From an uncultured Succinivibrio sp. (GTDB lineage Bacteria; Pseudomonadota; Gammaproteobacteria; Enterobacterales; Succinivibrionaceae): a stretch of 64,000 nt of DNA. Below, one piece after another: positions 561-1,517 of the stretch. The position numbers were made by a program, and so were the translations under genes. The stretch is taken from NCBI GenBank assembly GCA_900767695.1, contig CAAGAC010000030.1:48728-112727 (forward strand), in the 5' to 3' direction. The notes under the pieces are model-generated. The model was given only the letters and a program-made list of their open reading frames with translations. It made no database searches and was not told the DNA's origin. Every line of letters begins with the position of its first letter. Positions within the stretch are counted from its first letter, which is position 1.

Positions 561-1517
561 ATGTCAGAGAGCAATTCAACGGAATACATTTCCCACCACC
601 TCCACTTCCTTCAAATAGATCTGCGCGACTTGTCGGTAGTGGACAGCGTCAAGCCCACCGATCAGAAGGCCTTCGAGACCTGCCTGGCCACCGCAGACCA
701 GCAGGAGTGCCTCAAGACGGTCGCGACCGAGAAGTGCTACGTCTCGGATCTGGGCCACGGCACCTGCTACGGCATGCTGCCAGAGGCCAAGGGCTCAGGA
801 AGCATCTTCAACCCGTACACGCTCAACCTCGACTCGATGGGGCTGACCATCATCCTCGGCCTGCTCTTCGTGGCGATGTTCAGGTACGCGGCCAAGCGCA
901 CCAAGTCGGGAGTCCCGGGCAAGTTCCAGTGCTTCCTCGAGATGGTCTTCGGGATGGTGCGCGGCATGGTCACCGGGATCTTCAAGCGCAAGAGCGCGCT
1001 CATCGCCCCGCTGTCCCTCACCGTCTTCGTCTGGATCTTCCTGATGAACCTGATGGACCTCCTGCCCATCGACCTCATCCCCGAGATTGCTAAGTTCATC
1101 GGCGTGCCCTACCTCAGGGCCGTGCCGTCTGCCGACGCGAACATCACGCTGTCCATGGCAGTGTGCGTGTTCCTGCTCATCTTCGCGTTCTCGTTCAAGA
1201 ACATCGGCGTCATGGGCTTCATCAGGAGCCTGACGATGCACCCGTTCAACCACTGGGCCTTCATCCCGCTCAACTTCATCCTCGAGGGCGTCTCGCTGCT
1301 CTCTAAGCCGATCTCGCTAGGCTTGCGACTCTTCGGCAACATGTACGCCGGCGAGATGATCTTCATCCTCATAGCGCTGATCCCGCTGTGGTGGATCCAG
1401 TGGACGCTGAACGTGCCCTGGGCGCTATTCCACATCCTAATTGTTACCTTGCAGGCATTCATCTTCATGGTGTTGACGATCGTGTATCTGTCGATGGCCA
1501 GCGAAGATGATGAGTAG
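561..1517 (+). CDS. atpB: F0F1 ATP synthase subunit a, with N-terminal Cys-rich insertion
   Basis: [20 protein letters not shown] and [17 protein letters not shown] motifs. Confidence 0.98.

Follow-up and report, generated by a model that had tools for sequence, protein, structure and literature searches.

In an uncultured Succinivibrio sp., subunit a of the F0 sector (AtpB) carries a cysteine-paired insert of 49 residues which, as judged from sequence comparison, is a family trait of Succinivibrionaceae. The gene lies near the start of the stretch of 64,000 nucleotides analysed here (the window). The family set comprised 98 Succinivibrionaceae genomes, 86 of which gave an AtpB match; 84 full-length genes, including that of the window, were taken, and two cut by contig ends were left out. 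Measured from the His-His pair up to the motif that precedes the first membrane helix, the loop is enlarged in all 84 proteins (55-86 residues). It measures 14-34 residues in an outgroup of 40 AtpB from 16 families, hand-picked among the 150 matches listed. When 19 other family genomes were scanned with a profile of the four-cysteine insert, 17 gave a match, the two misses being one truncated gene and one two-cysteine form. The profile matched none of 281 genomes of the order outside the family. In the class, where 400 genomes were scored and one was not, it gave nothing beyond short weak frames. Five of these weak matches, in frames of 26-87 aa with E-values of 0.001-0.007, were judged to be noise.

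Position, Sequence and Predicted Fold of the Insert

The window starts with a complete, normal atp operon. atpB (561..1517, + strand) is an open reading frame of 318 codons for F0 subunit a, identified by its translation, by its alignment to the E. coli protein, by a match of Pfam ATP-synt_A (PF00119) to residues 95-311 (177.6 bits against a cut-off of 33.9), and by NCBIfam NF004477 (352.6 bits, cut-off 280). The gene for AtpI (71..475, +) gave a weak Pfam ATP-synt_I match (22.9 bits, under the cut-off of 25.1), and the remaining operon genes, atpE-F-H-A-G-D-C, follow in the usual order (1543..7141, +). Subunit c is E. coli-like and has the proton-carrying Asp. At 7216-8316 on the minus strand of the window is encoded a protein whose C-terminal tail is long, charged and of low complexity; we take it, by recognition, to be an RpoH-like sigma factor.

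The likeness of AtpB to E. coli subunit a (PDB 6OQR, NF004477) covers the membrane core, six channel residues, the His-His segment and the strands of the first hairpin. The canonical membrane core (816..1514, +) was delimited by invariance in the 84 proteins, the E. coli alignment and the fold match to 6oqr_a. Asp166, Arg256, Asn260, Glu265, His291 and Gln298 correspond to E. coli Asp119, Arg210, Asn214, Glu219, His245 and Gln252, and all six proton-path residues are invariant in 84/84 family proteins. By these alignments, the protein is an F-type H+-ATP synthase subunit a with an unaltered proton path. The conserved N-terminal segment Tyr9-Asp20, including His12-His13 (585..620, +), is marked by invariant columns (see also PMC7251095). 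The difference from E. coli lies between these parts. Residues 6-32 align to E. coli 8-34 and residues 86-316 to 39-270, so that 53 residues stand for 4, giving a net insertion of 49. The insertion region (residues 29-85; 645..815, +) is hydrophilic and has no membrane span, and the corresponding loop of enterobacterial-type proteins is free of cysteine. An insert of about 47 aa had been claimed in the original prediction; the insertion is real, but its net size is 49, and 47 is the length difference between the whole proteins. The four cysteines, Cys41, Cys50, Cys59 and Cys69, are all encoded by TGC, at 681, 708, 735 and 765.

A hydrophobic span was sought in the tail before residue 93 and none was found, and the N-terminal helix of the E. 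coli protein (residues 8-16) is periplasmic, where it abuts subunits b and c (PMC7251095). From these two observations we infer by analogy that the insert is periplasmic. The full-length AlphaFold model is weak (mean pLDDT 61.7); it matches E. coli subunit a (6oqr_a) with a TM-score of 0.83 by target, but is poor over the insert, with pLDDT of about 50-54 there, so that the placement of the insert on the core is tentative. A model of the N-terminal fragment (residues 7-95), made with the 84-row alignment, reaches pLDDT 90-95 over residues 17-66, 77 over 67-76 and 59 over the linker. Both models agree on a strand at 25-32, helices at about 35-42 and 47-53, and a strand at 56-60, and the insert is confidently predicted to be an extended beta-hairpin with a helical hairpin at its tip. 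The predicted outgoing strand 25-32 (633..656, +) lengthens an ancestral hairpin. It leads to the predicted helical hairpin 35-53 (663..719, +), placed by alignment and model, which holds Cys41 (681-683) and Cys50 (708-710). The returning strand 56-60 and a conserved loop from Cys59 (735-737) to Cys69 (765-767) follow at 726..773 (+), and the 84-protein alignment places the invariant Asp63 (747-749) and Leu64 (750-752) inside that loop (747..752, +). A variable, low-confidence linker, 72-85 (774..815, +), then leads to the strand ahead of the first membrane helix. We infer that the putative disulfides pair Cys41 with Cys50 and Cys59 with Cys69. A small disulfide-bonded or metal-binding periplasmic domain had been proposed from the window alone; a folded, conserved, presumably periplasm-facing domain with probable disulfides is supported by the confident fragment model and by conservation in the family.

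The domain had also been called grafted, for which the searches offer no donor. The insert region had no Pfam domain match, and in this genome the sole match of the insert profile was AtpB itself. Among 1.84 billion representatives the profile gave 13 matches, namely seven AtpB N-termini and six repeat proteins. The latter (DUF11, fn3, WD40 and others) were discarded as donors, their scores being summed from weak stretches. A fold search of the N-terminal model against 48,161 PDB chains returned none at Z 2 or more, Foldseek gave viscotoxin and crambin as its best rows (E 4.5-7.7, not significant), and an Atlas features search reached 0.85 at best, below the bar of 0.9. That no match turned up does not by itself establish a new fold. 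P0013, an unrelated library protein, has repeats of a short C-x8-C motif like that of the hairpin, which was taken as convergence.

Conservation of the Cysteines and Selection on the Insert

Cysteines in the loop number four in 76 of the 84 family AtpB, two in five and six in three, and the number is never odd. Four were also found in 50/50 additional database proteins (49 by script, one by eye), a set which is biased to close relatives and in which the overlap with the 84 was kept; Succinivibrio dextrinosolvens is among the named homologues with the insert. In the two-cysteine forms Cys59 and Cys69 are retained, and the block with Cys41 and Cys50 is missing; that block coincides with the helical hairpin predicted at the tip of the beta-hairpin. 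The six-cysteine forms, which fall in a cluster named Succinimonas amylolytica, have an extra pair inside the same block. All 79 proteins with the helical hairpin have both of its cysteines, and Cys59, Asp63, Leu64 and Cys69 are invariant in 84/84, the two-cysteine forms included. Positions near the cysteines vary (mean 2.08 bits, versus 0.77 in the core), and cysteine conservation in the insert is, on this alignment, far beyond chance. The alignment across relatives that had been proposed as a check on the four cysteines came out in favour of the prediction.

The regular spacing that had been noted, C-x8-C-x8-C-x9-C, is correct in the AtpB of the window, but the regularity is not kept in relatives. 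Among the 76 four-cysteine proteins, the first gap is 8 (25 proteins), 9 (40) or 10 (11), the second is 7 (3), 8 (71) or 10 (2), and the third is 9 (75) or 10 (1). A CxxC motif was looked for in the insert and occurs in none of the 84 family proteins.

The two-cysteine forms make up one clade and the six-cysteine forms another, the latter nested among four-cysteine forms. In a quick tree of the AtpB core, for which 44 of the 84 family rows were used, the two-cysteine forms fall outside the four- and six-cysteine group with support 91. A tree of AtpA, AtpG and AtpD from 16 family and five outgroup operons fixes neither placement of the two-cysteine forms, and AU tests reject neither arrangement (p 0.243 and 0.433). 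On these values, a stepwise gain from two to four cysteines is not claimed.

Substitution rates were taken from eight disjoint close pairs among 36 same-genus genes, and from a rough codon model. In the close pairs, dN/dS is 0.019 for the core and 0.078 for the insert, and, with the cysteines excluded, 0.127 for the hairpin and 0.059 for loop 56-70; the codon model gives 0.038, 0.083, 0.156 and 0.027 for core, insert, hairpin and loop, respectively. These ratios indicate that the insert is under purifying but relaxed selection. The surface of the hairpin is loose (2.43 bits versus 0.77 in the core), and the Cys59-Cys69 loop is, on the same data, the constrained part of the insert, nearly as constrained as the core. 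Part of the growth of the insert may have been neutral accretion in a tolerant loop, later fixed by disulfides.

A different cysteine pair is found in the N-terminal loop of 11 of the 40 outgroup AtpB, from five families of the order (loci L109, L110, L112, L113, L116, L119, L120, L121, L123, L127 and L133). It shares with the insert its place in the same loop, but the loop is 26-34 aa long, the two cysteines flank the ancestral hairpin without aligning to Cys59 and Cys69, and these proteins are not matched by the insert profile. The outgroup pair is likely an independent disulfide on this alignment; thus, disulfide stapling of the N-terminal loop would have arisen more than once.

Other variants of the operon were seen within the family. 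In one genus group (g12, 5/5 genomes), AtpB has 447-452 aa; the turn that joins the last two membrane helices is longer by about 115-120 residues, which amount to about four hydrophobic helices (L078:620-1963, L079:590-1948, L080:586-1929, L083:627-1970 and L084:610-1953); the cluster of one of them is named Ruminobacter amylophilus. The extra helices had no Pfam match, and the Atlas structure rows offered only generic four-helix membrane proteins, below the naming bar. This form may be a more unexpected variant than the cysteine insert. It coincides with a duplicate atpE, found in L080 as tandem copies of 75 aa each, one residue apart (1945-2172 and 2200-2427). Two c-subunit motifs occur in four of the five g12 loci and one truncated copy in the fifth. 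Smaller insertions in the last-helix turn (28-54 residues, versus about 25 in short forms) span the Ruminobacter/Succinimonas clade (L076, L081, L065-L071 and L075). The two-cysteine clade (L147, L150, L151 and L152) has divergent c subunits, in which residues close to the polar loop and to the proton-carrying Asp are changed. In the operon region of L154 no atpE was detected by script; the gene may have been missed, or the assembly may have a gap there.

A Probable Structural Role and Its Alternatives

The insert is probably a passive, disulfide-locked cap or brace on the stator, exported as a tail, oxidised at its two pairs by DsbA and DsbB, and docked through Asp63-Leu64. The acidic tail of about 92 residues would cross the membrane unfolded, and DsbA/DsbB would oxidise two consecutive cysteine pairs. 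Strand 25-32 would run out and bear the helical hairpin 35-53 on its tip, strand 56-60 would return into the short loop closed at Cys69, and the invariant Asp63-Leu64 loop would dock the module onto the subunit a core. The domain would then stiffen and cover the periplasmic a/b/c contact area, and would protect the long loop from degradation. In bacteria, the variable loops of subunit a on the periplasmic side have been interpreted as having a structural role, bracing subunit b (PMC6377231).

The genes needed for oxidation are widespread in the family. DsbB is found in 87 of 98 family genomes and, with its cysteine pairs, in the present one; DsbA-family matches occur in 98/98, in a protein family with non-oxidase members as well. 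Classical DsbA with a signal peptide was present in 4/4 inspected relatives, the two nearest genomes among them, and was not found in the 89.9%-complete assembly of this genome. The only periplasmic DsbA-family candidate in the assembly is a signal-peptide thioredoxin-fold protein with a CGYC motif (G000:C68:11061-11819, L094), which to our eye resembles ScsC-type isomerases. DsbD and cytochrome bd are present; the N-domain of DsbC was sought in this genome and not found.

Structural disulfides are favoured over a metal site because of the paired gain and loss of cysteines, the lack of CxxC, the variable spacing and the family-wide Dsb genes, although the first argument rests on only two events, there being one clade for each atypical cysteine count. 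CxxC knuckles and four fixed ligands are the criterion for a Cys4 zinc or rubredoxin-type site. Metal binding had been admitted in the original prediction; a zinc or iron site would suit four conserved cysteines and has a distant parallel in a Glu/His/Asp/His site on the cytoplasmic side of P. aeruginosa subunit a (PMC12796488). It is nevertheless very improbable, since the two- and six-cysteine forms occur (five of the 84 proteins being without one whole pair), the pairs sit on separate predicted elements, one on the helical tip and one on the strand and loop, and the compartment is oxidising. Redox or pH gating is also less likely than a structural role. In a redox gate, Cys59-Cys69 would be reduced when electron acceptors are scarce, the Asp63 loop would move and proton flow through F0 would be throttled. 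The pair is invariant and presumably near the inlet side, and with DsbB, DsbD and cytochrome bd the periplasmic redox state could perhaps track the quinone pool. However, disulfides made by DsbA in the periplasm are normally constitutive, and one, two or three pairs with loose spacing suit staples better than a tuned switch. Chloroplast gamma provides an example of a regulatory disulfide (cited in PMC12002316), but the sole periplasmic disulfide of subunit a tested so far is insensitive to DTT (PMC12002316), and we regard such a gate as improbable.

That the insert forms an inlet vestibule for proton entry is rather unlikely, but the idea draws on several facts: Asp63 is invariant even in the two-cysteine forms, the insert has a mean net charge of -2.8, and ATP synthesis rose about five-fold when E. 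coli AtpB was given a His-rich tail by fusion (PMC12035521). The N-terminal insertion of A. baumannii relocates proton entry (PMC8849298), and therefore such inserts are not always passive. On the other side, family tails average 94 residues with a net charge of -7.4 (negative in 84/84) and outgroup tails 38 residues with -3.2, which is the same charge density, so that acidity is not enriched. Asp63 is placed by the model in a short helical turn, a position that suits a capping residue, and the channel residues are unaltered. An acid antenna argued from charge alone is ruled out by the equal charge density in the outgroup. A negative charge suits export of an N-terminal tail, and the tail charge fits this better than a special proton antenna. 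Docking of a periplasmic partner or second complex, or shielding of F0 against periplasmic peptides, is likewise unlikely. The hairpin is predicted to be folded and protruding, with a variable surface over a fixed scaffold; periplasm-side loops of AtpB have been enlarged repeatedly in Succinivibrionaceae, and F0 is the target of microcin H47 (review, PMC10233263). A fixed partner would be expected to leave a conserved surface patch, which the hairpin does not have at 2.43 bits. There is no known partner, one clade does without the hairpin, and dN/dS well under 1 gives no sign of positive selection. A specific function would also explain the constraint on the Cys59-Cys69 loop and its invariant Asp, which counts against the passive cap that we prefer.

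Relation to Known Insertions and Significance

The claim that no equivalent had been described was too strong. In Chloroflexus aurantiacus, subunit a has a periplasmic insertion, His142-Thr172, with a Cys135-Cys173 disulfide, and DTT changed neither the integrity of the ATP synthase nor ATP synthesis (PMC12002316). As a lineage-specific periplasmic insertion with a disulfide, it is the best functional analogue among the systems compared. It is not homologous: it lies in the aH3-aH4 linker, has one bond and is partly disordered (PMC12002316), whereas the Succinivibrionaceae insert lies in the N-terminal loop, has two putative bonds and is predicted with confidence to be folded. Insertions at the N-terminus of subunit a have also been described in bacteria, and that of Acinetobacter baumannii, in the same periplasmic region of a gammaproteobacterial protein of 291 aa in all, was the largest among the structures solved at that time; the passages of PMC8849298 that describe it mention no cysteine staple. 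Our search of the open-access literature found no paper on the Succinivibrionaceae insert, though related sequences may be present in the alignment figures of PMC8849298 and PMC12002316. A cysteine-paired periplasmic mini-domain defining this family is apparently undescribed.

Chloroplast gamma is a subunit of the F1 rotor, is located on the reducing side and is regulated. Its redox switch resembles the insert in being a cysteine pair on a lineage-specific insertion of ATP synthase (PMC12002316); the Succinivibrionaceae insert differs in belonging to the stator and, presumably, to the periplasmic side. A thiol-gated F0 stator, with the invariant Cys59-Asp63-Cys69 loop at the inlet and its oxidation state governed by the quinone pool by way of DsbB and DsbD, is a long shot. 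If true, it would open or throttle proton flow as the availability of fumarate or oxygen shifts, and would be the first redox control on an F-type membrane stator, exerted from outside the cytoplasm and giving a new control point. If the role is structural, the insert would be an N-terminal elaboration of subunit a larger than that of the 291-aa Acinetobacter protein. The two-, four- and six-cysteine forms are a natural series in cultured species, and together with the Ruminobacter form they offer a ready test of how much the periplasmic face of F0 tolerates and of any effect on proton entry. The insert is also a clean marker for Succinivibrionaceae, a family prominent in rumen and gut communities.
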